From: Bdellovibrionales bacterium
GTDB lineage: Bacteria; Bdellovibrionota_G; JALEGL01; JAGRMV01
Assembly: GCA_020434345.1 (NCBI GenBank)
Contig: JAGRAZ010000016.1
Span: forward strand, 1-32,142
Direction of reading: 5' to 3'
Length of the DNA: 32,142 nucleotides
Of this stretch, positions 4,218 to 32,142 are shown piece after piece. Both the position numbers and the translations under genes were made by a program. The notes under the pieces were generated by a model. It saw nothing but the letters and a program-made list of their open reading frames with translations. It did not search any database and was not told the DNA's origin. The stretch's first letter is position 1. Every line of letters begins with the position of its first letter.

Positions 4218-6104
4218 TTACTTTTCTTCAACCCACATGTGTTTCCACAAATGATGGTCTTGATAGTCCTTATAAAAACCTTTGATAAACGGCTTAAGCA
4301 TATAGGTTTTGGTATACAAATAGATAGGAATCATCGCTTGGTCTTCCATCGCAATTTTTTCTGCATCGTGCAGCATTTGCATACGAAGTGAAAGATCAGA
4401 CTCCTGATTACTTTTCTCTACCAACGCATCGAACTCGGCATTTTTCCAGTTGCTGTGATTATTACCACTATTGGAAAGATTAAGTTCAATAAACGTATAT
4501 GGATCTAAAAAATCTCCGATCCATCCTTGTCGTGCAATTTCAAAGTTATGTTTTTGTAGGTCGTCCAAATATACTTTCCACTCAACATTCACCATATCTA
4601 CATCAATGTTGAGATTTTTCTTCCACATTTGTTGCACAGCTTGAATGATTAAACGGTGAATATCTTTAGTATCGTACTTAAATTTAAATTTAGGAAATCC
4701 CTTACCTTCAGGATACCCTGCTTCCGCTAAAAGTTGTTTTGCTTTTTCAGGATTATAAAGCTCTTGTTGGTAGCTTTTATAACCAGCCAAACCATCCGGT
4801 ACCAATCCACCGTAAGGAATATAACTTCCTGCCAACACATTTTTTGTAATGGTTTCACGATCAATCGAAAGACTCAAAGCCTTACGAACACGCACATCGT
4901 TAAGCACCGGCAGATCATGGTTAATAATATAGTAATACACACCTAGGTAAGGATCATTGTGAAAGTCTTTAAAGTTTTGCACTTGATTGAGTTGTTCTGC
5001 AGGCACTTCATGCGGACCTGTCCAGTCAATTTCACCTACTTTATAAGCATTCATCGCAGCTGTTTCAGTTTCAATCATGAGTACACGAATGCGTGGTGTT
5101 TTTACATTTGCAGCGTCCCAGTAAAATGGATTTTTCTCGTACACTTTATCAATTTTGAAATTCTCTTTTACCAATTTGTACGCACCACTGACCACGATGT
5201 TTTCTAAGCGAACCCAAGAAGATTCATCTCCGTTATTCTCTTTTGCGATTCTTTCAATGACATGTTTTGGAACAGCAGCAAAACAAGTAAACTCGGATAA
5301 CAAAATAAAATAAGGAAGCGGGCCCACCAATCGCACTTCAAGTTGACGATCGTCCAACGCACGAAGCTCTACAACGCTTTCATCGGCCATCTTTGCCGAT
5401 ATGCCTTGGCCTAACGCGTTTGATTTTGTAATCGCATTGATCAACTTTGTCCTTTGATCATCCGCATCTTTTCCTTCACCATTTACAAAGACAAATAGAT
5501 CGGTACTTTGAAATTTTGGTTTGATTTTTTCAATAGACACGCCTTTGGCTTCCAATGTTTTTTGAACTGTATCAATAGCAGCCTCTTTAGAAAAACCAGA
5601 AATAACAACAGCACGTCTTCCAAAAGCTTCGCCACCTTCAACAATGGTGTATCCAAGTGCTGTATACTGTGCACCTGTTTTTGGGTTCATCAAACGCTTC
5701 CATGAGTATTCAAAATCATGCGCTGTCAAAGGTTGCCCATCGGACCATTTTAAACCTTCACGTAGATGAAAAATATATCGATATCCTTCATCGAGCACAT
5801 CCCAGCGCTCTGCTAAATCAGGTACAGGCTGACTTGTTTCAGGATTAATCTGTACAAGTCTTGCAAAAGCATTCATCGCAAGATTTCCATCAGGCACGCC
5901 GGCTGCTAAAATAGGATCCATGTACTGAGGCTCTTCGCGATTGTTGATCCAAATTTCATCTTTTCCATGTTTTGGCGCTGTTGTACCAAAAAATTGTTCT
6001 GCAGAACTTTCAGAACCATTGGGCGTGGGGGCGTTTTCTTCTTTCTTTGTACAAGCAAAAACCAACGATAACGCAACAAACAAACAAATATTTTTAATTT
6101 TCAT
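4218..6104 (-). CDS. oppA: Oligopeptide-binding lipoprotein, family-5 substrate-binding protein (OppA paralog 1).
   Basis: Lipobox LVFAC, 628 aa, SBP_bac_5-like sequence, strong GGGGGAGAA RBS. It is first in gene order after the second oppA. Confidence 0.8.
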   Translation of the reverse strand: MKIKNICLFVALSLVFACTKKEENAPTPNGSESSAEQFFGTTAPKHGKDEIWINNREEPQYMDPILAAGVPDGNLAMNAFARLVQINPETSQPVPDLAERWDVLDEGYRYIFHLREGLKWSDGQPLTAHDFEYSWKRLMNPKTGAQYTALGYTIVEGGEAFGRRAVVISGFSKEAAIDTVQKTLEAKGVSIEKIKPKFQSTDLFVFVNGEGKDADDQRTKLINAITKSNALGQGISAKMADESVVELRALDDRQLEVRLVGPLPYFILLSEFTCFAAVPKHVIERIAKENNGDESSWVRLENIVVSGAYKLVKENFKIDKVYEKNPFYWDAANVKTPRIRVLMIETETAAMNAYKVGEIDWTGPHEVPAEQLNQVQNFKDFHNDPYLGVYYYIINHDLPVLNDVRVRKALSLSIDRETITKNVLAGSYIPYGGLVPDGLAGYKSYQQELYNPEKAKQLLAEAGYPEGKGFPKFKFKYDTKDIHRLIIQAVQQMWKKNLNIDVDMVNVEWKVYLDDLQKHNFEIARQGWIGDFLDPYTFIELNLSNSGNNHSNWKNAEFDALVEKSNQESDLSLRMQMLHDAEKIAMEDQAMIPIYLYTKTYMLKPFIKGFYKDYQDHHLWKHMWVEEK

Positions 6105-6140
6105 TTTTCTCCCCCTATTTCTCTTTCAAAAAAAAATCAG

Positions 6141-6206
6141 CTATTCCCATGGAACGTTTGGCACTGCATCTGGATTTTCAGGAACGCCTTTGTACCAGCA
6201 CTCGTC
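6141..6206 (-). pseudogene. Fossil copy of the last ~22 codons plus stop of the upstream oppA paralog (..DECWYKGVPENPDAVPNVPWE*). It is followed on the minus strand by a T9 run.
   Basis: 66 bp at 6141-6206 is about 91% identical to 6310-6375, the 3' end of the oppA at 6310-8205. The stop codon is conserved. It lies in the oppA-oppA intergenic region. Confidence 0.7.
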
Positions 6207-6309
6207 ATTACCTGCGTATTGCCCCTCGGCAATACTTGCAAGGGAAAAACGCTTTTCCCCTCTTTGCACAAAATAAATTTGTGCAAATTCACCCCTTTGC
6301 GACCTATCA

Positions 6310-8205
6310 CTATTCCCATGGAACGTTTGGAACTGCATCTGGATTTTCTGGTACACCTTTGTACCAACGCTCGTCTATCCACATGTATTTCCAGTTGTAC
6401 TTGTCTTGTAAGCTTGGAAAAATTCCTTTGACGTAAGGTTTGACTTGTTTTGTTCCAGAGTACCAATAAATTGGCATGATCGGTTGCTCATCCGCTAAAA
6501 TATGCTCTGCTTCTTGGAACAAGGACAAACGTGCCTCAGGATCACGCATGTAATCCGACTGATCCATCAATTCATCAAATTTCGCATTTTTCCAACCAGT
6601 ATGATTGTTGGTGCTGTGAGACAAAAACACACTTAAGAACGTATGCGGATCGAGATAGTCTGCAACCCACGCCATTCTCATGATATCAAAATTATGCACG
6701 TTTTGATCTTCAATCAAAGTGCGCCACTCCATGTTTGTAATTTCAACATGAATGTTTAAATTATTTTTCCACATTTCCTGCACAGCCTCAGCAATTTTTC
6801 TGTGACCTTCAAGTGTATTGAATTTAACCAAAATTTTGGGGAAGTCTTTTCCGTTTGGATATCCAGCTTCAGAAAGCAACTGCTTTGCCTTTGCTGGATT
6901 GTAAACTTCGCTCTGTATACTTTTATATCCGCCAAGACCTTCCATCACCAAATCTCTAGATGGAATTTGACCAAGCTTTAAAATATTATCGACAATAGAT
7001 TTTCTATCAACCGCGAGTGATAGCGCTTGACGAACACGTTTGTCATTGAGCGGCTTTCTTTCAACGTTGAATTGATAGTAATAGACTGCTGTTTTAGGAT
7101 AAAACCATGTGTCTTTATATTTTCTCATTTCATCAACATACTCACTTGGGTAACTCTCGCTTGAGCTCCAATCATGCTGACCCACTTTGTATGCGTTCAT
7201 CGTAGGTTGCGCATTTTCGATCATGATTGCTTTGACTTTATTTAAGCGAACTTTGTCAGCATGAAAATACAAAGGATTTTTTTGATATATTTTGTATTGT
7301 TTAAATTCTTCTTCAACAAGCTTGAATGCGCCACTGACAACAATGTTCTCAGCACGCGTCCAAAGTTCTGGACGGCCTTGCGCCTCAAACTTCTCAATGA
7401 CATGTTTTGGTACTGGTGCAAAAACCATGTACGAAATCATGCCCACAAAATAGGGTGCTGGAGAAACTAGCTGAACCCAAAGTGTATAGTCATCTTTGGC
7501 TTGAACTTGAACAACATTCGCAGTTGTTGGTTCTGCTTTAATGTCTGAACCTAGAATGCCTTTGTTAATTTCTTCAATCAGTTGATCTTTTTTATCTTTC
7601 TTTGCTTGCGCATCTTCGTCTTTAACAAAAAGAAAGTAGTTCTTCGTTCTTGCATCAGAAGTAATTTCAACATCTTTGAGCTGTGCAGGTAATTTATCTT
7701 GAATCATTTTACTTTCAGCAGCATCAAAATTTTTCAAACCTGTTACTGTAACGCTTCCTTCGCGAAATGCGCGGCCATTTTGAATGATGTCCGCCATTTG
7801 TGAATACGTTGAAACTGTTTTAGGATTGAGAAGTCTTTTCCACGAATACTCAACATCATGCGCCGTCATGGGTTTACCATCAGACCACTTTGCATCCTCA
7901 CGCAGGTGAAATGTATACTCACGACCATCTTGTGAAAGATCCCAACTGGTTGCAAAATCACCGATAGGCTTTTGCGTGATAGGATGAACTTCCGTTAAAC
8001 GAACAAACATCGCATCAGTAAGGGCTTGAGAAACTGAGTCTGAAACTTGTGCAGGATCCATGTACTGTGGCTCACCACCAGCATCGGTCCACATCTCATC
8101 TGCAGGGTGTTTTGGAATAACCGTTCCGTAATAATCTGGATGCGTGTCTTTTTTCGTACACGCAATTGTTAGACTAAGTAGTAATAGAGGTAGGATTTTT
8201 TTCAT
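6310..8205 (-). CDS. oppA: Oligopeptide-binding lipoprotein, family-5 SBP (OppA paralog 2), with a C-terminal WYKGVPENPDAVPNVPWE tail that paralog 1 lacks.
   Basis: Lipobox LTIAC, 631 aa, similar throughout to the 4218-6104 product. It is first gene of the minus-strand operon. Confidence 0.8.
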   Translation of the reverse strand: MKKILPLLLLSLTIACTKKDTHPDYYGTVIPKHPADEMWTDAGGEPQYMDPAQVSDSVSQALTDAMFVRLTEVHPITQKPIGDFATSWDLSQDGREYTFHLREDAKWSDGKPMTAHDVEYSWKRLLNPKTVSTYSQMADIIQNGRAFREGSVTVTGLKNFDAAESKMIQDKLPAQLKDVEITSDARTKNYFLFVKDEDAQAKKDKKDQLIEEINKGILGSDIKAEPTTANVVQVQAKDDYTLWVQLVSPAPYFVGMISYMVFAPVPKHVIEKFEAQGRPELWTRAENIVVSGAFKLVEEEFKQYKIYQKNPLYFHADKVRLNKVKAIMIENAQPTMNAYKVGQHDWSSSESYPSEYVDEMRKYKDTWFYPKTAVYYYQFNVERKPLNDKRVRQALSLAVDRKSIVDNILKLGQIPSRDLVMEGLGGYKSIQSEVYNPAKAKQLLSEAGYPNGKDFPKILVKFNTLEGHRKIAEAVQEMWKNNLNIHVEITNMEWRTLIEDQNVHNFDIMRMAWVADYLDPHTFLSVFLSHSTNNHTGWKNAKFDELMDQSDYMRDPEARLSLFQEAEHILADEQPIMPIYWYSGTKQVKPYVKGIFPSLQDKYNWKYMWIDERWYKGVPENPDAVPNVPWE

Positions 8206-21856: not shown

Positions 21857-21946
21857 GGAGGATTGGCCGAGTGGTTGATGGCGGCGGTCTTGAAAACCGT
21901 TGTACCTTAACGGGTACCGGGGGTTCGAATCCCTCATCCTCCGCCA
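21857..21946 (+). tRNA. tRNA-Ser(UGA), 90 nt, long variable arm, encoded CCA.
   Basis: Acceptor GGAGGAT/ATCCTCC, D-arm GCCGAGTGGTTGATGGC, anticodon loop CTTGAAA, long variable arm, T-arm CCGGGGGTTCGAATCCC, discriminator G and CCA. Confidence 0.9.
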
Positions 21947-22058
21947 TCTTCTCATCCAAGCAAATCCAAAAAACTCCAAAAACAAAAATAAATCCAAAGA
22001 TTTAAGCTATTTAGTTGTCCATACACGACCTAGAAAAACCCATTGCATCCAGGTTCAT

Positions 22059-22116
22059 ATACGGGTAACTCTAAGGGTAACTTATGAAATCACCCATTCT
22101 ACCAAGAAAGTTACCC
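22059..22116. repeat. Cluster of GGGTAAC motifs: two direct (ATACGGGTAACT-CTAA-GGGTAAC) plus one inverted (GTTACCCGC), immediately upstream of the int fragment. It is a candidate integrase arm-type or terminal-repeat site.
   Basis: Seen directly. The 12-mer ATACGGGTAACT and GCGGGTAAC recur at 31788-31810. Confidence 0.5.
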
Positions 22117-22121
22117 GCACA

Positions 22122-22307
22122 ATGCCCTTAACCGCCCTACAGGTAAAGTCTGCCAAACCCAAAGCCAAAAACTACAAGCTCACCGATGAAAAAGGGTTGC
22201 TATTGGAAGTAACATCCCCGCCATTTCTTCGTAACTTATTCTTAGCTTACACTTGGTTTCTTCTTCGATTCTCGCGTATGGGGATTCGAACTTTGTTCGT
22301 CTGTTGA
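22122..22307 (+). pseudogene. int: N-terminal fragment of a P4-like tyrosine integrase (DUF4102 arm-binding domain), decayed after ~33 codons.
   Basis: MPLTALQVKSAKPKAKNYKLTDEKGLLLEVTSP matches the LTDxxIKxAKPxxKxYKLxDGxGLxLxV N-terminus of P4-family integrases. The downstream sequence is non-homologous, with a stop at 22307. Confidence 0.7.
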
Positions 22308-22740
22308 TTGTGCGCTTACGCGCATGGCTCATCCTCCGCCATCTACTAACACTTAAGACTTCGGGCTTAAGGGTTAACCTTTAAACCAACCGTCAAACCC
22401 TAAGCCCTAATAGTAATCCTTTTTATTCCTAAAGCTGGTCCTGCCCGGACAGATAGTTTACAGTTTTTACCGGAGGCATGGTTTACAGTTTCAAAACAAA
22501 CGGTTCTTCTGCCGATTTTGTCGCTTTCGCTCCATGGCGCATCCACCTGGGTTTCGAATAATCTCGGACCGGAAAACAAGGAAATTAAATGTAAAAGTTA
22601 GAACTTGATCTGATAATAATAAACTTTCCCCGCTGGATAACTTGTCAGATTTAGTTCATGCTTTTACAAGTAATTTCTAACTTTACTTAAAATCGAATGT
22701 GATCCTTTGTAACGATGCAATACTTCGCTGATATACATCT

Positions 22741-23010
22741 TTATGAGATGGATCGTCTATCAGTATTTGTATATGGTTTCGAATATCTTGATGTTGTTGG
22801 CAGAACATCTTCACAATTTTTTTTATCATGATTTGGATTTTGTTGGTAGGGTGGTATCAATATGGTTTCTTCAATTTCAAAATGTGGTTGCATCACTTCT
22901 GCCCATTCTTTCATGAAAGCAATGAGTTCAGTTTCTAAGTCAAGGTTCTCATCCAATGCCTTGAAAATACGTTTTACTTGAACCAGCCCATGGTGATGTT
23001 CAACAGACAA
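22741..23010 (-). CDS. Hemerythrin-like (HHE cation-binding, RIC/DnrN-like) small protein. It is probably frameshifted at an A8 tract; the +1 frame continues a hemerythrin-like C-terminus (..QQHQDIRNHIQILIDDPSHKDVYQ..).
   Basis: MKEWAEVMQPHFEIEETILIP resembles the H..EE..L.P hemerythrin motif. A T8/A8 homopolymer lies at 22817-22824, and the downstream alternative frame has a His-rich helix-like sequence. Confidence 0.4.
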   Translation of the reverse strand: MSVEHHHGLVQVKRIFKALDENLDLETELIAFMKEWAEVMQPHFEIEETILIPPYQQNPNHDKKNCEDVLPTTSRYSKPYTNTDRRSIS

Positions 23011-23033
23011 AGACCTTAAAGCGTCTGAGCGCT

Positions 23034-23315
23034 TTATTTTACTAAACTATAAAATTCAATGTAAAATTCAACCTCGCCAAGAGGCTTGATTTTATGTTCT
23101 TGCTCAGGTGCTACTATTCCCTTTTTCGTTGGTGTTAATACATAAGACTGGTTGCTTTCAAGGATGGTATATTCTAATTTCCCTTGTTGAACGCAAATGA
23201 CCGCCCAAGTATTTGCTTTGGTATCATGCATTTTTAACAAGCGATCTGGCACTGTCTTTTCGTTAAAAAGGTCGGATTGATGATATTTTTTCACATCTGC
23301 TGGTAATGTCCTCAT
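23034..23315 (-). CDS. YeaR-like DUF1971 protein (small cupin-like protein of NsrR/nitrate regulons).
   Basis: YHQSDLFNEKTVPDRLLKMHDTKANTWAVICVQQGKLEY and the C-terminal VEFYIEFY parallel the E. coli YeaR pattern. Its start ATGA-overlaps the upstream gene. Confidence 0.55.
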   Translation of the reverse strand: MRTLPADVKKYHQSDLFNEKTVPDRLLKMHDTKANTWAVICVQQGKLEYTILESNQSYVLTPTKKGIVAPEQEHKIKPLGEVEFYIEFYSLVK

Positions 23316-23701
23316 TGTCGCTCCTTTTGTCCTATTTCAACACTTAATTTTAAACTGGATGCAATCATTTCACTTCGTTCAATATACATTGTTGCCACTT
23401 CTTCTGTATGTATTTCTCTGACCGTTTGCGCAAATAAACTAAGCCATCGGTCAAATAGTTGAAGATCAAACGTTGGTAGGTCTTTGTGTTTTTGGTGCGG
23501 ATTGCCTTTATATTTCCTACTGCGCAACATCAATGAGGACCAAAAAGCATACATTCTTTGCAAATGTGTCTTCCACGCTTCGGAAGTCGTTCCAATCACA
23601 CCATCGAAAACAGGACCAAGTGCATGGTCTTGTCTCACCTTTATATAAAAGGCATCCACCAGTTCTTTGATGCTGCTTTCTGTGATTTGATTTCTTTTCA
23701 T
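23312..23701 (-). CDS. Truncated (2/2) haemoglobin.
   Basis: F.G......W..H...MY.FW......YKGNP...H..L.....F..WL.LF pattern of trHb groups II/III. 129 aa from MKRNQITE. Confidence 0.7.
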   Translation of the reverse strand: MKRNQITESSIKELVDAFYIKVRQDHALGPVFDGVIGTTSEAWKTHLQRMYAFWSSLMLRSRKYKGNPHQKHKDLPTFDLQLFDRWLSLFAQTVREIHTEEVATMYIERSEMIASSLKLSVEIGQKERQ

Positions 23702-24117
23702 ACAAGCCTTCTTTGGAGGTAAAAAGCTGCACAAGCGATGATCATTACTTTGGATATTTCTAGGGCAACATAGTATTTATGAAGCATACTTGGTGTGGGC
23801 TTCTGCCCTTGCGCAATCAAAGCAATTCGGTGATCAAGTTTGGGAAGAAGACCGAAGGTATCCACGCAAAGAATAACCAATAGGACAATAGCTACAACAA
23901 AAATCCACGGCACTCTAAGAAACATGGCACTTCCCAAAAAAAACAAAACAAACCCCCACTCCACCTTATTAAAAAAATGAAAGGTCGCTTGTCCAATTTC
24001 TAACGCTACAGGAAGTGTTAAGCCAGGTGCTTTGAATTTTATTGGAGTAGCAAGAAACGACACCCCCAATATAAATCCCATATACAACCAGTACATATTT
24101 AATACATATAGTTTCAT
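23698..24117 (-). CDS. Small 4-TM membrane protein, DUF4149-like (tentative).
   Basis: Hydrophobic segments and an F.ATP..F.APGL..P.A...GQ..F pattern. It lies directly downstream of qNor. Confidence 0.35.
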   Translation of the reverse strand: MKLYVLNMYWLYMGFILGVSFLATPIKFKAPGLTLPVALEIGQATFHFFNKVEWGFVLFFLGSAMFLRVPWIFVVAIVLLVILCVDTFGLLPKLDHRIALIAQGQKPTPSMLHKYYVALEISKVMIIACAAFYLQRRLV

Positions 24118-24232
24118 TGCTACTCCAAAGATGCATAATATGCATATACAATACATATTAAAACTGCAAGCTTTACTCATTCAAAATCTGCGATATTTAA
24201 AACGTAAACATGTACCAAAACGGTATCATTTT

Positions 24233-26515
24233 TTATTGAACCTTAGGGTAATCTGCGTCAGATAAATCTTGATTGGGCTTCAAAGAAAACCCTGTTTTTA
24301 AACCAACAACAAAAATGGCAAGTGTTACCGTTCCCACAGCAAATATGGTGTCTCCTACCACGCGTAACCAACGAAAGAGCTCCATGATGTCGGTCTGGTT
24401 AAATTCTGCCGATCTTGCATACCACATGCCATGCTCCACACTTGCAAGCGTTTGGAGCAAACCCACGGGAAGAAGGCTCAAAAGTGCCATCGCTGCAAGC
24501 CCAATATTGATAGACCAAAAGGAAAAGCCTATCATGCCGTCTTTCCACTGTCTCTTGGCTGCCAAACCTTTGAGGCAAAATAACATTAGACCAATACCCA
24601 AGTTTCCATAGACCCCAAACAGCGCTGTGTGCCCATGAAGAGGCGTGGTATTAAGACCCTGCATATAGTACAGCGCAATCGGTGGATTGATCAAGAATCC
24701 AAATATACCAGCACCAACCAAATTCCAGAAAGCTACCGCAATAAAGAAGTAGATCGGCCACTTATACGCTTTCACCCAACTGACAGCGCGACTTAAGGTG
24801 AGGTTATGGTAAGCCTCAAAACCAATGAGAACAAGTGGAACAACTTCTAGTGCGCTAAATGATGCTCCCAATGCCAATACTGCTGTTGGTGTTCCTGTAA
24901 AATAAAGGTGATGAAAGGTACCAATGATTCCTCCACTTAAAAAGATAACGGTCGAGAAAAGTACTGCGGCAGTTGCAACGGCAGTTCGTATCAGGCCCAT
25001 ACGCACAAAAAGAAAGGCAATGACTACAGTGGCAAATACTTCAAAGAAACCTTCTACCCATAAATGAACAACCCACCATCTCCAATATTCTGCAATGGCC
25101 AAATTGGTTTGACGACCCCACATAAGACCCGCTGCATAGAAAAGTGCAATGGCAGCAGAAGAAATCATGAAAACGGTCAGCAAATGACGGCTTTCTTTTT
25201 GCTGTTTGAACGCAGGAAGTATAGCGCGGGTCATCAAGCCTAACCATAGGAAAAGCCCTACCAAAAGAAATATTTGCCAGAATCTGCCAAGCTCGACATA
25301 TTCATATCCTTGGTGTCCAAACCAAAAATTTTCTGCCAGCCCGAGCTTCTGCATCACGCCAAACCATTGACCAGCCAGAGATCCCACAACGATAATAAGG
25401 AGGGCAATAAAAAGAAAGTTGACGCCCGCACGTTGAAATTTGGGTTCGTATCCAGAAACGGCTGGCGCAATAAAGAGCCCTGTCGCCAACCATGAGGTCG
25501 CAATCCAGAAAATAGCAAGTTGAATATGCCATGTTCTGCTTACAGAATAAGGTAGCCATTCAGCCAGAGGAAAACCATAAAACCCATTTCCTTCCACACC
25601 ATAATGTGCCGTTACGACTCCAAGAAGAACTTGAACAAGAATCAATGCTGCAACCACCCAAAAGTATTTTAACGTTGCAGCCATAGATGGCGTAGGGTTG
25701 AGTGCCAAGAGCGGATCTTTGTCAGGAAGTTCCTCTTCAGAGACCTCTTCTTCTTTTCGTGATGCATAATAAAAAGCAAGAAGTCCAATGCCTCCAATAA
25801 GTAAGATTACACTAAAACCTGTCCAAATTAGAAGCGCACCTGTTGGTTTATTGTCTACAAGTTCTTCTGGAGGCCAATTGTTGGTATAAGTTACGTCACT
25901 TCCAGGTCGATTGGTTACACACGCCCATGATGTCCAAAAAAAGAATTGATTGAGTTTTTCCATACGAGTTGGATCTTTGATGGTATCTTGAGGTATGGCA
26001 TAGGCTTCTCTTAATTCCTCCATGGCCGGATCATTCATGAATAGAGACTGATAATGCTTACCAACCTCTTTAATGGCCTCGGCTCGAATAGCTGAAATGG
26101 TAAGAGTTTGGGTCTCAGAGTTGTAGGTGTTGGTACGAAGTTCTTTTTTTAGACGAATTTTTAACGCAGCCTGTTGTTCTTCTCCGAGTGCGTCAAAGCT
26201 CAAGGCATATTCCTGTTGGCTCCAGGTATTTAAAATATACTCAGCTTCGCGGTGCAACCAGTCTGCTGACCAGTCGGGAGCAATATAGGCACCATGTCCC
26301 CAAACAGAACCAATGTTATGTCCCCCCATCGACTGCCAAATATTTTGACCATCTTTGATATCCTGCCCTTCAAACAAAACATTGCCATCTAAGACAACTT
26401 GTTTTGGAACAGGAGGAGCAGATCGATAAATTTCCAATCCATAGTATCCAAGGACTGCAAACGAGCCCACCATAACAAAGAGGAAAGAAAACCATAATTT
26501 TCTGTATTGCTTCAC
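24233..26515 (-). CDS. norB: Quinol-dependent nitric oxide reductase (qNor, single-subunit NorB/NorZ).
   Basis: 760 aa. It combines an N-terminal periplasmic extension with the 12-TM haem-copper-oxidase core carrying multiple conserved His (HHLYF, HG H). The length matches qNor rather than cNorB. Confidence 0.9.
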   Translation of the reverse strand: MKQYRKLWFSFLFVMVGSFAVLGYYGLEIYRSAPPVPKQVVLDGNVLFEGQDIKDGQNIWQSMGGHNIGSVWGHGAYIAPDWSADWLHREAEYILNTWSQQEYALSFDALGEEQQAALKIRLKKELRTNTYNSETQTLTISAIRAEAIKEVGKHYQSLFMNDPAMEELREAYAIPQDTIKDPTRMEKLNQFFFWTSWACVTNRPGSDVTYTNNWPPEELVDNKPTGALLIWTGFSVILLIGGIGLLAFYYASRKEEEVSEEELPDKDPLLALNPTPSMAATLKYFWVVAALILVQVLLGVVTAHYGVEGNGFYGFPLAEWLPYSVSRTWHIQLAIFWIATSWLATGLFIAPAVSGYEPKFQRAGVNFLFIALLIIVVGSLAGQWFGVMQKLGLAENFWFGHQGYEYVELGRFWQIFLLVGLFLWLGLMTRAILPAFKQQKESRHLLTVFMISSAAIALFYAAGLMWGRQTNLAIAEYWRWWVVHLWVEGFFEVFATVVIAFLFVRMGLIRTAVATAAVLFSTVIFLSGGIIGTFHHLYFTGTPTAVLALGASFSALEVVPLVLIGFEAYHNLTLSRAVSWVKAYKWPIYFFIAVAFWNLVGAGIFGFLINPPIALYYMQGLNTTPLHGHTALFGVYGNLGIGLMLFCLKGLAAKRQWKDGMIGFSFWSINIGLAAMALLSLLPVGLLQTLASVEHGMWYARSAEFNQTDIMELFRWLRVVGDTIFAVGTVTLAIFVVGLKTGFSLKPNQDLSDADYPKVQ

Positions 26516-26574
26516 GACACTCCACCTACCTATTGCAATGCATTTGGTTCATTAAATACACGACATATATTTTG

Positions 26575-26597
26575 AATGCATATTTTGAATATGCAAT
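26575..26597. promoter_or_regulatory. Candidate Rrf2/NsrR operator, the imperfect palindrome AATGCATATT-TTG-AATATGCAAT, in the norB/nsrR divergent promoter region. Further ATGCA-type half-sites flank it (TTGCAATGCATTT at 26533-26545).
   Basis: The 10-3-10 inverted repeat has 1 mismatch and is AT-rich with ATGCAT cores like known NsrR boxes. It does not fit the E. coli 11-1-11 spacing exactly. Confidence 0.35.
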
Positions 26598-26652
26598 ATA
26601 TATACTTATTTACAGATTTGTATATATTAATTCATTGTCGAATCAAGGATTT

Positions 26653-27060
26653 ATGAAAATTACCAAATTTACAGATTATGCTTTACGAACACTTATGTTT
26701 CTTGCATCCAATCAAAACACAACCAAACTCCATACATCCAAACAAATTGCAGCTTTTCATCATATCTCCTATCACCACATGGGCAAAATCGTACACAAGC
26801 TCTCTACTCTTGGATATATAGAAAGCATCAAAGGGAAAAATGGAGGTATTCTCCTCAAAAAACACCCAGCCGATATTGATCTAAAAACTCTGTTTTTGGT
26901 TTTAGAAAATGACTTAAATATTGTGGAATGTTTTGATGCGAAAACAAACACCTGCAAAATATACAAAAACTGTGGTCTAAAAAAGATTTTGAATGAATCT
27001 TTGGGTGCATTCATAAACACATTGGGAAAATATACACTGAAGGACACTTTGCTGAAGTAA
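26653..27060 (+). CDS. nsrR: Rrf2-family [Fe-S] transcriptional repressor, NsrR-like NO sensor.
   Basis: N-terminal wHTH MKITKFTDYALRTLMFLA and a C-x7-C-x5-C cluster (CFDAKTNTCKIYKNC). It lies between qNor and nirK. Confidence 0.8.
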   Translation: MKITKFTDYALRTLMFLASNQNTTKLHTSKQIAAFHHISYHHMGKIVHKLSTLGYIESIKGKNGGILLKKHPADIDLKTLFLVLENDLNIVECFDAKTNTCKIYKNCGLKKILNESLGAFINTLGKYTLKDTLLK

Positions 27061-27114
27061 AAAGTGCCTCATGCGTCTACTATATCCCAACTGTACAAAA
27101 AAGAGAGGGAGACA

Positions 27115-28536
27115 ATGAAAAAATTATTTTGTTTAATGTTGGGGCTGTCAATGGTTGGTTGTACACAGAGCAACCAAAACAATCAAAGTCAAAAAGAAGC
27201 TGTGATTAAAGGAGAGGAGGTTGCTATTTTAACCGATGCGCCTCAGGTTCCTCCTGCAATCACACGTAAACACGCCACCAAAGTAATTGTCAATTTAGAA
27301 ACCTCTGAGCTGAAAATGTCTCTTGCAGATGGTGTTGAATATACTTTTTGGACCTTTGGTGGAAAGGTGCCAGGGAAATTTATCCGGGTTCGTGAAGGTG
27401 ATTTGGTAGAATTTCATCTCCACAACCATCCAGACAGTAAAATGCCTCATAATATTGATCTGCACGCGGTGACCGGTCCAGGTGGTGGTGCTGTATCTTC
27501 TTTCACTGCGCCAGGACATAGCTCCACGTTTTCATTTCGTGCGTTAAATCCAGGCTTGTATGTTTATCATTGTGCAACAGCACCTGTAGGTATGCATATT
27601 GCGAACGGAATGTATGGGCTCATTCTGGTCGAGCCAAAAGAGGGTTTGCCGAAAGTAGATCGAGAGTATTATGTCATGCAAAGTGAGTTTTATACCAAGG
27701 GTGCCTTTGGTGACCAAGGGCACCAGCCTTTCAGTATGGAAAAAGCTTTAGAAGAAAATCCAGATTATGTTGTGTTTAACGGTGCAGTTGATGCCATTTC
27801 TGGTGAAAAATCACTTCCAGCACAAACTGGCGAAACAATTCGTTTGTATGTTGGTAACGGTGGTCCGAATCTTATATCTTCGTTTCACGTTATTGGTGAG
27901 ATCTTTGACAAAGTTCACCCAGAAGGAAGCCTAAGTACGACGAACAAGGATGTTCAAACGACACTCGTTCCAGCAGGTGGGTCAGCTGTGGTGGAATTTG
28001 AAGTGGATACTTCAGGTACTTATATTCTTGTAGATCACTCTATTTTTCGTGCGTTCAATAAAGGTGCTTTGGGTATGATCGAAGTTACTGGAAAAGATGA
28101 TAAAAACGTTTTTTCAGGCAAACTTGAAGACAAGGTATATCATCCTGAGGGCAGCACCATCCAAAATATCGACGAAGATCCAGCTCCAAAAGTTGTTGCG
28201 CAAAACAGAGCAGAACGTTTGGAGTTTGGGAAGCGAATCTATGACCAAAACTGTAAAGCTTGTCACCAGGCAGAAGGTAAAGGCTTGGCAACTGCGTTTC
28301 CTCCTCTTGCATCGTCAGACTACTTGAATGCTGATAAACAAAGAGCCATCAAAGTGATTCTGGAGGGTTTGGAAGGCCCTATCACCGTCAACGGTAAAGT
28401 ATTTGACAGTGTGATGCCAGCCCAACGACTTACAGATGAAGACATCGCAAACGTATTAACCTATGTATATAACAACTGGGGCAATTCTGGCCAAAATGTA
28501 AGCCCAGAGGATGTTAAGGCAGTGCGAGAAAAATGA
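27115..28536 (+). CDS. nirK: Copper-containing nitrite reductase NirK with a fused C-terminal cytochrome c domain (class III), a lipoprotein.
   Basis: [13 protein letters not shown] (T2Cu/T1Cu His), [20 protein letters not shown] (T1Cu Cys-His-Met), and a C-terminal CKACH haem-c motif. Lipobox LSMVGC, GAGAGGGAG RBS. The ORF-track start at 27064 is rejected. Confidence 0.9.
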
Positions 28537-29312
28537 GAAACCTGTTGATTGTCTTTTTACTTATGATTTGGGGTGTTTGTTTTGCAACAAGCACCCCATT
28601 ATCGGTGATGCTTCCTCCAGGTCAATATCGACCACTGTTAAAAGTTACAGAAGATTCATCAAAGCGAATAAAGGTAGAATCGTTTAAGATGGATAAGTAT
28701 CCAGTTACCAATAAAGATTTTGTATCGTTTGTAAAAAATAATCCAAAATGGAAAAAATCAAATGTTCCAAGTTTATTTGCGGGCAGTGAGTATCTCAAAT
28801 TATGGAAAGACGACGTAACCCTTGGTAAAAAGGCACCTGAAGATGCTCCTGTTGTTTTTATTTCGTGGTTTGCAGCCAAAGCTTATTGCGAATCAAAAGG
28901 AAAAACACTTCCCACAGAAGCGCAGTGGGAATATGCTGCCGCAGCCAGCCCAACAAAAAAATTTGCCGCTTATGAAGATGCCTCTTTTCAAAAGAAAATT
29001 TTAGAGTGGTATGGAAACCCCACCAGTCACCCTTTAGGTGCTGTCGGTAAAAATGATGCAAATATATATGGCATATATGATTTGCACGAACGTGTTTGGG
29101 AATGGGTTTTAGATTTCAACAATGGTTTGGTCACAGGTGAATCTAGGGGAGATCGAACCTTAGATCAAAAAATGTTCTGTGGTTCTGGTGCGTCTGGTTC
29201 TGTGGATCCTGGCGATTATGCTACATTTATGCGCTATGCTTTTCGGAGCAGTTTAAAAGCAAATTATACCGTATCTAATCTTGGTTTCCGGTGTGCAAAG
29301 GAGTTAGAATGA
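28533..29312 (+). CDS. nirV: NirV, a formylglycine-generating-enzyme (SUMF1/FGE) domain protein commonly encoded downstream of nirK.
   Basis: Signal peptide, [11 protein letters not shown] and W/G-rich FGE-sulfatase-domain blocks. Its start ATGA-overlaps the nirK stop. Confidence 0.75.
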
Positions 29313-29875
29313 ATTACTACATATTTGGTTTTTTTTTGGTTTTATTTGTTACAGGAGGAATTGCGACTGCAGAAACGCATAAACTCCCTGAAAATTCCAT
29401 GTATCACCTTGATTCCAAATGGAAAACCGAAGATGGAAACGTAATATCTCTGTCGGACTTGCAAGGTGATACGCATATAATGACAATGGTTTTTACCAGT
29501 TGTGAGTACGCATGCCCTATGATTATCAGTGACATTCATAAGATTACCAAAGGACTTCCTAAAAAAATCCAAAAAAAAGTACGCATTTCTCTTTTTTCTT
29601 TTGATCCGGAAAAAGACACACCAGGTGTCCTTAAAAAATTTAGTACCAAGCATATGCTAGGCAGCAACTGGAACATGTACACCAGTGACGAAAGTACAGT
29701 AAGGGAGCTGGCAGCTGTTCTTGGGGTGAAATATAAAAAAATGGAAAATGGCATGTTTGGCCATTCCAATGTGATCAGTATAGTAGATTCCAATGGTGTT
29801 ATTGTGCACCAACAAAATGGGCTATATGCAGATCCTGCACCGGCCATTCATAAAATAAAAGAGCAATTTGAATGA
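29309..29875 (+). CDS. SCO1/SenC-family copper chaperone (thioredoxin fold).
   Basis: CEYACP (CxxxCP) plus a downstream conserved His (FGHSNVISIVD) and an N-terminal TM anchor. AAGGAG RBS, start overlapping the nirV stop. Confidence 0.75.
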   Translation: MNYYIFGFFLVLFVTGGIATAETHKLPENSMYHLDSKWKTEDGNVISLSDLQGDTHIMTMVFTSCEYACPMIISDIHKITKGLPKKIQKKVRISLFSFDPEKDTPGVLKKFSTKHMLGSNWNMYTSDESTVRELAAVLGVKYKKMENGMFGHSNVISIVDSNGVIVHQQNGLYADPAPAIHKIKEQFE

Positions 29876-31044
29876 TCCAAAGAAAAACACATCCGTTTTG
29901 GTCAGTAGGCTTTAGACCTTTCTTCTTTCTTGCGATAGTACAAACCCTTGTCGCTAGCTGTTGTTGGACACTGCACTATCTTGGGTGGCTTGATATTGAG
30001 ATACCCGTAGGTTCAAACTTTGTGTGGCATGCGGCAACCATGTTGTATGGGTTTGTAATCAGTGTTTTTATAGGCTTTTTACTAACAGCCACCGCAAAAT
30101 GGACAAATACACCCCCGCTTTCAGGAAACAAACTTAAAGCTTTTTTCATATTCTTTGCAATTGCCCAGGTGATGTGGTTTTTTCCGATGGTTTTTCCTAA
30201 ATTTGTTTACCAAGCATTTTTTTTGGCTGTGTATATATTTTTACCCTTATTTTTAATCAGGTTATTTCTACGAACGAAACACTATCGAAATATGTTTATC
30301 GTTATTCCCGTTGGATTGATGTGCATTGGTGCAGTGTTTATGTTTGCTCAAAACGTTGCTACAGCTAATCTATGGGTAGGGCTTACGCTGGGCGCTATGC
30401 GTGCCATGCTAGTGGTCATTTCAGGGAGGGTATTGCCCTTTTTCTCTAAAATGGCATTGGACATCAATGTACAAGCGGTGAACCCGAAAGCGGAAGTTTT
30501 TCTTTTACTGACAATGATGGCGCTTATCTTTGAGCCACTGTACCAGTATTTGGATCCATATGGATCTGCGTTATGGCTTGTGCTTACCACATTTGCATTG
30601 GTATTAAACTTATATAGACTATGGAAATGGCCCATACGTAAGTCTTTTTCCATTCCTATCTTGTCCATTCTTTTTATCGGATACCTATGGATACCAATAC
30701 ATTTCGCACTAAATATCGCATCACACTTACATTTCGTATCACAGCTGGGACAACCTTCAGTGCATGCGCTTACTTATGGTGCAATGGGCATTATGATTGT
30801 CGCAATGATAAGTCGAGTATCCCTTGGACACACAGGCAGAAAAATTCAAGCAACAACCATGATGAAAACGGCATATGGTATCATCGTTTTTGGCGCATTT
30901 TCCCGTGTGTTTGGTCCCATCTTATTTCCTGCAGGTTATATCAGCTGGATAGGTCTTACTGGACTTATGTGGTTTGTTTCTTTTGCACTACTTGCAATCG
31001 AAATATTCCCAATGCTACTTAAACCAAGACCAGACGAAATGTAG
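29872..31044 (+). CDS. nnrS: NnrS-family haem-copper membrane protein (NO-stress response).
   Basis: 390 aa, ~12 TM segments and conserved His-rich helices. The position after nirK-nirV-sco is typical for nnrS. Confidence 0.8.
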   Translation: MIQRKTHPFWSVGFRPFFFLAIVQTLVASCCWTLHYLGWLDIEIPVGSNFVWHAATMLYGFVISVFIGFLLTATAKWTNTPPLSGNKLKAFFIFFAIAQVMWFFPMVFPKFVYQAFFLAVYIFLPLFLIRLFLRTKHYRNMFIVIPVGLMCIGAVFMFAQNVATANLWVGLTLGAMRAMLVVISGRVLPFFSKMALDINVQAVNPKAEVFLLLTMMALIFEPLYQYLDPYGSALWLVLTTFALVLNLYRLWKWPIRKSFSIPILSILFIGYLWIPIHFALNIASHLHFVSQLGQPSVHALTYGAMGIMIVAMISRVSLGHTGRKIQATTMMKTAYGIIVFGAFSRVFGPILFPAGYISWIGLTGLMWFVSFALLAIEIFPMLLKPRPDEM

Positions 31045-31172
31045 GTCAGTCAAAGGTATAACTCAAAAGGGAAATTTAACCAAATTCTAGGGTTTTTACT
31101 AGAAATTCATATGTTTCCAACAAACGACCTTCTACATTCCTACTATCTTCAGCAGATAGTAAAAAAACCAAG

Positions 31173-31213
31173 AAAAACCCTGCATACATATCTATGCGTT
31201 ATGCAGGTTTTGG
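31173..31213. terminator. Bidirectional intrinsic terminator between convergent nnrS and the HiPIP gene.
   Basis: AAAAA-CCTGCATA-(13-nt loop)-TATGCAGG-TTTT forms an 8-bp stem with A-run and T-run flanks. It overlaps the HiPIP stop codon. Confidence 0.5.
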
Positions 31214-31573
31214 TGCCCAAGATTTACACCAGCCATCTGCGTGAACCATCCCTTTTTTGGGTAGCAATTGACAAGGTCCGTACGATTTTCCATCTTCCGC
31301 GATATAAAACATACAATTATGGCAATATTGGTCCATACCTTTGACACCACTTTTTTCAACGCGCATTTCTGAAGATGCAGAAGAAGCATCTGCTACATAT
31401 GCCAAATTCTTGGCCATCGGATCATCTTCAGACACGAAAGTAACGCTGCTAGATGTATCTGGTTCCTTTGGTTTTTCCTCTACTTCAGGGTGTTTTTTAT
31501 CATTGGTACACGCTGCAATTGCAACGATTGGCAGCGCGATAAAGGTTTTTTGTAAAAATTCTCTTCTATTCAT
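31199..31573 (-). CDS. High-potential iron-sulfur protein (HiPIP) with a Tat signal.
   Basis: RREFLQK twin-arginine motif, then CHNC..Y ... GPCQLL ... GWCKSW four-Cys HiPIP signature. 124 aa. Confidence 0.8.
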   Translation of the reverse strand: MNRREFLQKTFIALPIVAIAACTNDKKHPEVEEKPKEPDTSSSVTFVSEDDPMAKNLAYVADASSASSEMRVEKSGVKGMDQYCHNCMFYIAEDGKSYGPCQLLPKKGMVHADGWCKSWAPKPA

Positions 31574-31632
31574 TTGTCTACTCCCAAAATCTTTATAAGG
31601 TTAATCTATCCAAGGATCAATCAATATCTGTT

Positions 31633-31683
31633 TTTGGAGCTGTACCAGATAACATATTTCTTGTTATCTGGTACAGCTCCAAA
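31633..31683. repeat. Perfect inverted repeat with 22-bp arms and a 7-nt loop (TTTGGAGCTGTACCAGATAACA-TATTTCT-TGTTATCTGGTACAGCTCCAAA), upstream of the HiPIP gene.
   Basis: Seen directly. It has no T-run on either side in terminator orientation and lies inside a 515-bp non-coding region. Confidence 0.6.
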
Positions 31684-31787
31684 CTTATACTCTTACACCT
31701 TTATTCTTACTACCCTTGAGATTTCATCTTTTCCTCAATCTGGTATGATGGGCTTCAACAGGTTGGGGCAGATCGAGGATCTAAGAG

Positions 31788-31810
31788 ATACGGGTAACTT
31801 TGCGGGTAAC
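31788..31810. repeat. Second GGGTAAC cluster (ATACGGGTAACT-TTG-CGGGTAAC), partner of the 22059-22116 cluster.
   Basis: It shares the exact 12-mer ATACGGGTAACT and the GCGGGTAAC motif with the cluster next to the int fragment. A CTAAG motif is also shared. Confidence 0.5.
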
Positions 31811-32088
31811 CTGTTTTAAGCGAAGTCTATATATCAATAATAACAAATAGATATATACCGAGTTAGAAAGCCTCATCCCGCCAGTCTTCGCTTCTTCAAA
31901 GCTACGACTGGCAGGCCTATGATCTACTGTTCAATTTTCTACATAACGTGTTCATTCTATTCTACGAAGACTAGTCCGGCATAGCCCTTAAGGCGACGAC
32001 GGACATGAACTCAACCCAGTATTCATGTATACCGGTCGCCTTGTCTACAAGAATTCCGATGAAGACCAAAATCTGATACATAAAACCC

Positions 32089-32142
32089 CATGACAACCCA
32101 ACCCATAACGCTCATTACCGGTGCTTCCAGTGGCATCGGGGT
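32089..32142 (+). CDS. Short-chain dehydrogenase/reductase (SDR), 5' end only, truncated by the window edge.
   Basis: MTTQPITLITGASSGIG is the canonical SDR TGxxxGIG N-terminus. Confidence 0.6.

Follow-up and report, generated by a model that had tools for sequence, protein, structure and literature searches.

The window analysed here, the entire 32,142-bp contig of a metagenome-assembled genome labelled 'Bdellovibrionales bacterium', carries on its plus strand a tRNA-Ser(UGA) gene (21857-21946) followed by a short interval that very probably holds the remains of a tRNA-targeting integrative element. The tRNA gene, detected with ARAGORN and matching Rfam RF00005 at 58.3 bits, is intact with an encoded CCA and is the presumed target of integration. 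Its last 14 nt (CCA included) and the 3 nt beyond form a 17-bp sequence, CTCATCCTCCGCCATCT, which is present at 21933-21949 (putative core of attL) and again, exactly and on the same strand, at 22328-22344 (putative core of attR), giving a start-to-start spacing of 395 bp, as the first-pass annotation of this DNA had described. According to the Rfam alignment, its first position is base three of the T-stem 3′ strand, from where it continues through the 3′ strand of the acceptor stem, the discriminator base and CCA to three bases further on. No other copy exists in the window on either strand, even with up to two mismatches allowed, and 100 dinucleotide-preserving shuffles of the window contained none. 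The genome-wide spread of the 17-mer was judged from its own contig and, indirectly, from public metagenomes, where a 20-nt version (core plus WCT) gave 15 unrelated chance matches in 241 million records, apparently coding and none of them in a tRNA context; the same 20-nt version had no match in IMG/VR. The 17-mer is thus a non-dispersed repeat, and the unrelated occurrences that would have spoken against the earlier description did not turn up. An intact tRNA gene together with a displaced fragment marks the ends of an island under the Islander principle (PMC4383910), and both are found here, the fragment at 22328-22344 lying in the same orientation as the gene; by the standard model, the second core would be the displaced 3′ end of the tRNA gene.

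The sole open reading frame (ORF) with a coding signal between the two cores starts at 22122 and runs to a stop codon at 22305-22307 (22122-22307, plus strand, 61 aa, beginning MPLTALQVKSAKPKAKNYKLTDEKGLLLEVTSPP). Its first part, 22122-22217, appears to be an integrase pseudogene comprising about the first 32 codons of a P4-like tyrosine integrase with an Arm-DNA-bind_3 domain, as judged from Pfam PF13356, HMMER and tblastn. Residues 3-33 align to positions 1-28 of the 83 of PF13356 (E = 0.0013, 19 bits), which is a partial match to this N-terminal domain. When the first 40 residues were compared with 1.84 billion representative proteins using HMMER, eight hits were obtained at E <= 1e-3, and all eight are Arm-DNA-bind_3 proteins in which the beginning of the domain matches residues 1-34 of the query; one example, P0125 (MPLTALAAKHAKPKAKPYKLTDEDGLHLLVHPNGGKYWRF), is 77% identical to the N-terminus of the ORF. 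With tblastn, the fragment matched residues 1-32 of phage P4 integrase at 56% identity (E = 4e-3) and plasmid genes annotated as 'integrase arm-type DNA-binding domain-containing protein' at 65.6% identity (E = 2e-5). A word-indexed protein search and an IMG/VR scan with the 61-aa ORF returned no match and nothing relevant, respectively. The homology ends between residues 30 and 34 in all comparisons, at about nucleotide 22217, and the last 29 codons of the ORF have no credible family match. This agrees with the earlier description of a 33-codon remnant that dissolves into non-homologous sequence and is the only coding signal between the repeats, since no other Pfam match was obtained there, and the similarity to integrase N-termini on which that description depended is borne out by the database searches. 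Neither a catalytic domain nor any other Pfam family was credibly matched in the small ORFs or in the 10 frames, of a total of 12, that were scanned across 22200-22760 and 31560-32100, so that the catalytic domain is absent rather than frameshifted. The C-terminal Phage_integrase domain with its R-H-R-Y residues is therefore missing, and the locus encodes a pseudogene stub and not a member enzyme. The 'P4-family' label given in the first-pass annotation stands as far as the N-terminal domain is concerned; it derives from that domain alone, the catalytic domain being gone. During the same search we observed an 839-aa protein in the representative protein library (P0121) with an unusual architecture, in which five Arm-DNA-bind_3 domains follow one another in tandem and Pfam recognizes no integrase catalytic domain.

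Between the first core and the ORF lies a plus-strand region (21950-22121) that we take to be the left arm (P′) and presumed int promoter region. A motif scan found three copies of GGGTAAC in it, two direct (22063-22069 and 22075-22081, 12 nt apart) and one inverted (22110-22116). The window contains eight copies of the motif where 2.95 would be expected; two copies with a spacing of 12 nt are seen twice, and in none of 300 shuffles. We regard these motifs as candidate arm-type sites at which the integrase would bind, in overlap with the int promoter. KplE1 IntS and 'STI' tRNA-integrase pairs in general have been described as having such an overlap, the 'STI' shape being a tRNA gene followed by a same-orientation integrase gene whose promoter is overlapped by attL, as with IntS-like integrases and with tRNA-Ser among the targets (PMC2951348). 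The layout that is kept here, namely tRNA, core, an arm region with three GGGTAAC motifs and int in the same orientation, corresponds to the order that is canonical for this integrase family.

The stretch between the end of the integrase homology and the second core (22218-22327, plus strand) is non-homologous filler, with no Pfam hit in the scanned frames, and presumably represents the right-end arm; it includes a 33-nt right-end block (22295-22327) that is repeated at 22503-22535. It also contains a T-loop-like 12-mer, GGGGATTCGAAC, at 22280-22291. The first-pass annotation had placed an inverted T-loop fragment one base lower (22279-22290) and proposed that part of the tRNA had been copied in reverse. 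The inverted match itself is real, with 11 exact nucleotides (GGGATTCGAAC) at 22281-22291 corresponding to tRNA positions 21923-21933; the probability of finding any tRNA 11-mer on either strand in the shuffled 378-bp interval is 0.008, and the match is probably not due to chance. Because TTCGAA is palindromic, GGGGATTCGAAC read directly also agrees with the T arm, at 10 of its 12 positions, and copying in reverse is therefore not required. The 12-mer belongs to a small hairpin, CGAAC-TTT-GTTCG (22287-22299). An Rfam search of both strands found no tRNA or pseudo-tRNA at this fragment at E <= 10. Scans of IMG/VR with the core and the arm motif gave nothing relevant, the matches to the arm motif appearing by eye to be coding repeats (Gly-Asn-Tyr/Phe).

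Using exact-protein look-ups in Logan, ENA and JGI data, we recovered nine contigs from other samples and assemblers that match the window at 98.8-100% identity. Three of these independent metagenome contigs (L001, L002 and L003) cross the junction at the second core. L003 represents a strain with 98.8% overall identity and covers the full region from the tRNA to the relic; its relic is identical, and the alignment departs from the window solely by a G-to-A change at 21922, in the 5′ strand of the T stem of tRNA-Ser, where it makes an A-C mismatch. Two further contigs from different samples and assemblies, L004 and L005, both stop exactly at window position 22330, 2 nt inside the second core, so that at this position two contigs end and three others read through. 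A divergence of strain variants at the junction might account for these contig ends.

Taken together, the locus is very likely a 378-bp fossil of a tRNA-targeting integrative element with an integrase of the P4/CP4-57 type, inserted at tRNA-Ser. A tyrosine integrase would have recombined the attP site of the element with the 3′ end of tRNA-Ser(UGA), with the exchange taking place within the 17-bp identity block. The element would have replaced the last 14 nt of the tRNA with its own copy, which kept the gene intact, while the original 3′ end was pushed to the far side of the element, giving the direct repeats attL (21933-21949) and attR (22328-22344). A later internal deletion, with one endpoint near int codon 33 and the other some 110 bp short of the right end, would have left the 378 bp seen today. 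The relic would further lie at the tRNA-proximal end of a series of older and more decayed att relics, implying that tRNA-Ser was reused by related elements through accretion. The suggestion in the first-pass annotation that this is a nearly fully deleted integrative element is supported by the cores, by the stub in its canonical place and by the missing catalytic domain. Since it has no catalytic domain, the relic is unable to excise itself and could at most be a passive substrate for a related integrase acting in trans.

Several points weigh against this interpretation. The Pfam PF13356 score is below the gathering threshold, which we attribute to the shortness of the fragment, and the family assignment depends on about 32 residues. 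A function of the GGGTAAC motifs as arm sites is inferred from their repetition only, and the 110 bp to the left of attR lack them and are no obvious partner of the left arm. Finally, no intact relative or empty-site allele was found that would show the insertion or the deletion endpoints by comparison: a scan of a genome collection anchored on the neighbouring deaminase gene detected no close relative of this metagenome-assembled genome and gave matches of at most 69% identity, mostly from Phycisphaerales and none with an adjacent tRNA-Ser, and the closest deaminase homologues in metagenomes have other neighbours and no synteny with tRNA-Ser.

A decayed island relic at a tRNA gene is a well-known phenomenon; here it occurs in a poorly sampled lineage, and the putative older att relics downstream are new. 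As in the P4, CP4-57 and KplE1-type systems, the first 32 residues can be aligned with the beginning of the arm-binding domain and with P4 Int, the int remnant lies directly downstream of the tRNA gene in the same orientation, the att/arm region overlaps the int upstream region and the element is flanked by direct repeats of the tRNA 3′ end. In contrast to the 440-aa P4 Int, about 7% of the gene (32 codons) is kept, with no catalytic domain and no cargo, and unlike the known P4-type islands the relic resides in an uncultured Bdellovibrionales metagenome-assembled genome. Its 17-bp identity block also differs from that of P4-type islands in starting in the 3′ strand of the T stem and not in the T loop. 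In the sublocation scheme reportedly due to Williams in 2002, the block looks more like the 'asymmetric 3′ end' type. A class of this name is described in bioRxiv 10.1101/2020.11.02.365908. The relic also has the defining signature of Islander-type islands, an intact tRNA gene with a same-orientation 3′ fragment downstream (PMC4383910), whereas the interval contains, in place of an integrase gene, only the stub of about 32 codons, so that it would probably fail the integrase requirement and perhaps the length filter as well.

Further traces of att sites are found downstream of the second core. At 22503-22547 (plus strand), local alignment detected a degenerate second copy of the right-end junction, which mirrors 22295-22337, i.e., the 33 nt to the left of the second core and the first 10 nt of the core, with 35 of 45 aligned positions identical and a score of 36 (maximum 28 in 200 whole-window shuffles; 0/200). 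It is probably an older relic of the attR type. At 31788-31810 (plus strand), a repeat search found ATACGGGTAACTTTGCGGGTAAC, a near-copy of the GGGTAAC pair that is identical to 22059-22081 at 20 of 23 positions (score 31, maximum 27 in 200 shuffles; 0/200), and which we consider a candidate for the arm sites at the right end of an older related element. The best match to the 39-mer of the attL region outside the scar follows on the same strand, 52 bp downstream of this 23-mer and about 9.5 kb from the second core, as a degenerate gapped copy at 31862-31902 (GTTAGAAAGCCTCATC--CCGCCAGTCTTCGCTTCTTCAAAGC) that reaches from the T loop into the beginning of the left arm. Its score of 28 was reached in 2 of 200 shuffles, and it is a candidate for the oldest attR; the order of arm and then core at 31788-31902 is the one expected of an attR. 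The same-orientation tRNA gene fragments downstream of the gene comprise one exact copy (22328-22344) and two candidates that are degenerate but have statistical support (22538-22547, inside the junction copy, and 31872-31889). Their pattern suggests that related elements used tRNA-Ser more than once and that the older junctions were pushed outward and decayed. The tandem arrays recognized by Islander have an integrase for each member (PMC4383910), and no integrase or integrase fragment is found downstream of 22344. The arrangement would fit a published scheme of integration, decay and accretion that includes cis-mobilizable elements (CIMEs; PMC5704250), and also the multiple direct repeats of ssrA known from Dehalococcoides islands (PMC3146451). 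Like the members of such arrays, the relic stands at the target-gene-proximal end of further putative att relics; unlike in the named arrays, its more distal repeats are degenerate, which would make the array old, and it involves a tyrosine integrase, not the serine recombinase of the Dehalococcoides islands.

Two other similarities in this region were discarded. The similarity between 22235-22265 and 31701-31731, which is significant pairwise, was dropped at the window level (37/200 shuffles), and that between the upstream parts of the two junction copies is not significant. Just upstream of the degenerate junction copy lie two 22-nt direct repeats 25 nt apart (22445-22491; CCGGACAGATAGTTTACAGTTT and CCGGAGGCATGGTTTACAGTTT), which could be binding sites of the arm type or for a regulator; their similarity to the equivalent part of the relic is not significant.

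To the left of the relic the window contains housekeeping genes, namely an Opp-type ABC transporter operon, an M1 peptidase, IleRS, a DHDPS-family gene, a Band-7 protein and a nucleoside deaminase. To its right lies a compact cluster for nitric oxide (NO) and nitrite detoxification (22741-31573), which includes genes for a hemerythrin-like protein, a DUF1971 protein, a globin-like protein, qNor, an Rrf2 regulator (NsrR-like), a copper nitrite reductase-like multicopper oxidase with cytochrome c, an FGE-sulfatase (NirV-like), SCO1/SenC, NnrS and HiPIP. Among the hits with a named organism, the closest qNor homologues come from Cytophagales (up to 77% identity), slightly above those of Bdellovibrio (72-74%).

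As an alternative, related elements could have accreted in tandem at tRNA-Ser to form a composite island of about 9.9 kb (21947-31889), with the scar as its left edge and the NO cluster as its surviving cargo. In that case the exact core at 22328 would mark an internal junction, so that this proposal extends the fossil interpretation and does not exclude it; the first-pass annotation had named an internal boundary of a composite island as its second option, which gains some support from the decayed att relics downstream and is not mutually exclusive with a deleted element. Accretion and tandem arrays are documented at tRNA and tmRNA genes (PMC4383910, PMC5704250, PMC3146451), the arm-like and core-like sequences at 31788-31810 and 31862-31902 are each the best match in the whole window and are separated by 52 bp, with the arm preceding the core, a further junction relic is present at 22503-22547, the genes between the sites form a coherent accessory module, and the closest qNor homologues stand in quite different contexts in other genomes. 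These contexts contained no tRNA-Ser and no integrase. Against the proposal, the distal core is degenerate and has two indels, no integrase, other mobility gene or fragment thereof is present in 22345-31900, and the sequence to the right of the second core has no similarity to the left arm. Nor does composition mark the cluster as foreign, with a GC content overall and at third codon positions of 0.408 and 0.353 versus 0.402 and 0.342 in the housekeeping genes on the left, and a tetranucleotide correlation that is only slightly lower. On balance we hold the composite island to be a tentative possibility at somewhat less than even chance. The combined proposal, that the cluster (22741-31573) is cargo of one or more ancient accreted P4-type islands at tRNA-Ser in a lineage of predatory bacteria and that the att cores of the relic are at the same time still used by related integrases in the natural population, with the breaks at 22330 being allelic variation, appears unlikely.

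Improbable in our estimation is the proposal that the relic is a CIME-like mini-element which is still recombinogenic, with a functional attL and attR, and which is excised or used as a landing site in trans by a related element. The CIME concept is established (PMC5704250) and, like the CIMEs related to ICESt1, the relic has kept attL and attR and lost its integration genes, there being no functional gene for integration, transfer or anything else between the cores. Both 17-bp cores are perfect while the older relics have decayed, the motifs of the left arm are retained, and L004 and L005 end together at 22330 inside the second core, a pattern expected from variants diverging there. Against this, the contig ends may have other causes, and 22330 lies 2 nt inside the repeat and not at its edge; exact-protein look-ups of the small ORFs near the second core and of HiPIP, NnrS and the deaminase recovered no variant allele, the right arm has no recognisable arm-type sites, and no helper integrase is known in this metagenome-assembled genome. 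At 378 bp, the relic is also far smaller than described CIMEs and shows no sign of mobilisation. It is much less probable still that a local partial duplication of tRNA-Ser left the second 17-mer behind, as part of a decayed tandem copy of the gene, and that the integrase-like ORF is a coincidence. The T-loop-like 12-mer 37 nt upstream of the second core, which fits directly at 10 of 12 positions, and the 7 nt before that core, which share four of their seven bases with the tRNA, are what such a duplication might leave. No tRNA-like match was found there on either strand at E <= 10, however, the 5′ two-thirds of the tRNA have no similar counterpart, and an integrase N-terminus in canonical position and orientation is strongly non-random. 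That the repeat arose by chance or through misassembly, e.g., by a chimeric join at a short repeat, would at first seem conceivable for a window that is a complete contig of a metagenome-assembled genome. This reading is refuted by the shuffles, none of which held even one copy of the 17-mer, and by the independent assemblies from other samples that span the junctions at 98.8-100% identity; the relic is not an assembly artefact because these assemblies carry the same structure, and the residual probability of such an origin is negligible.

With the fossil of a P4/CP4-57-type element as the preferred reading, tRNA-Ser(UGA) can be marked as an integration hotspot in an uncultured Bdellovibrionales lineage, and the locus supplies a 17-bp att core and, in the GGGTAAC pairs, a candidate motif for the arm sites of a P4-like integrase of this lineage. 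The 61-aa (or 135-aa) ORF is better annotated as an integrase pseudogene than as a hypothetical protein, and the adjacent NO-detoxification cluster may be flagged as possibly horizontally acquired. The practical value is modest, and the locus has no bearing on an open mechanistic question.

Several repeats elsewhere in the window were noted. A perfect 22-bp inverted repeat with a 7-nt spacer (31633-31683; TTTGGAGCTGTACCAGATAACA / TGTTATCTGGTACAGCTCCAAA) shares its intergenic region with the distal att-like relic; it is located 60 bp upstream of the start codon of HiPIP and could be an operator, a terminator or the end of an element. Just downstream of the minus-strand hemerythrin-like gene, an AT-rich, imperfect inverted repeat of 36 nt (22581-22677; 78% complementary, 25-nt spacer) is probably the terminator of the qNor operon. 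The start of the contig (1-219) consists of two 91-nt direct repeats that are 97% identical and spaced 128 nt, which Tandem Repeats Finder did not report and which may explain the assembly break at this point. Within the Opp-type transporter operon, 4218-8205 holds two tandem paralogous genes for family-5 solute-binding proteins (628 and 631 aa), which share repeated DNA segments at an offset of 2140 bp within the genes and of 169 bp across the junction between them.

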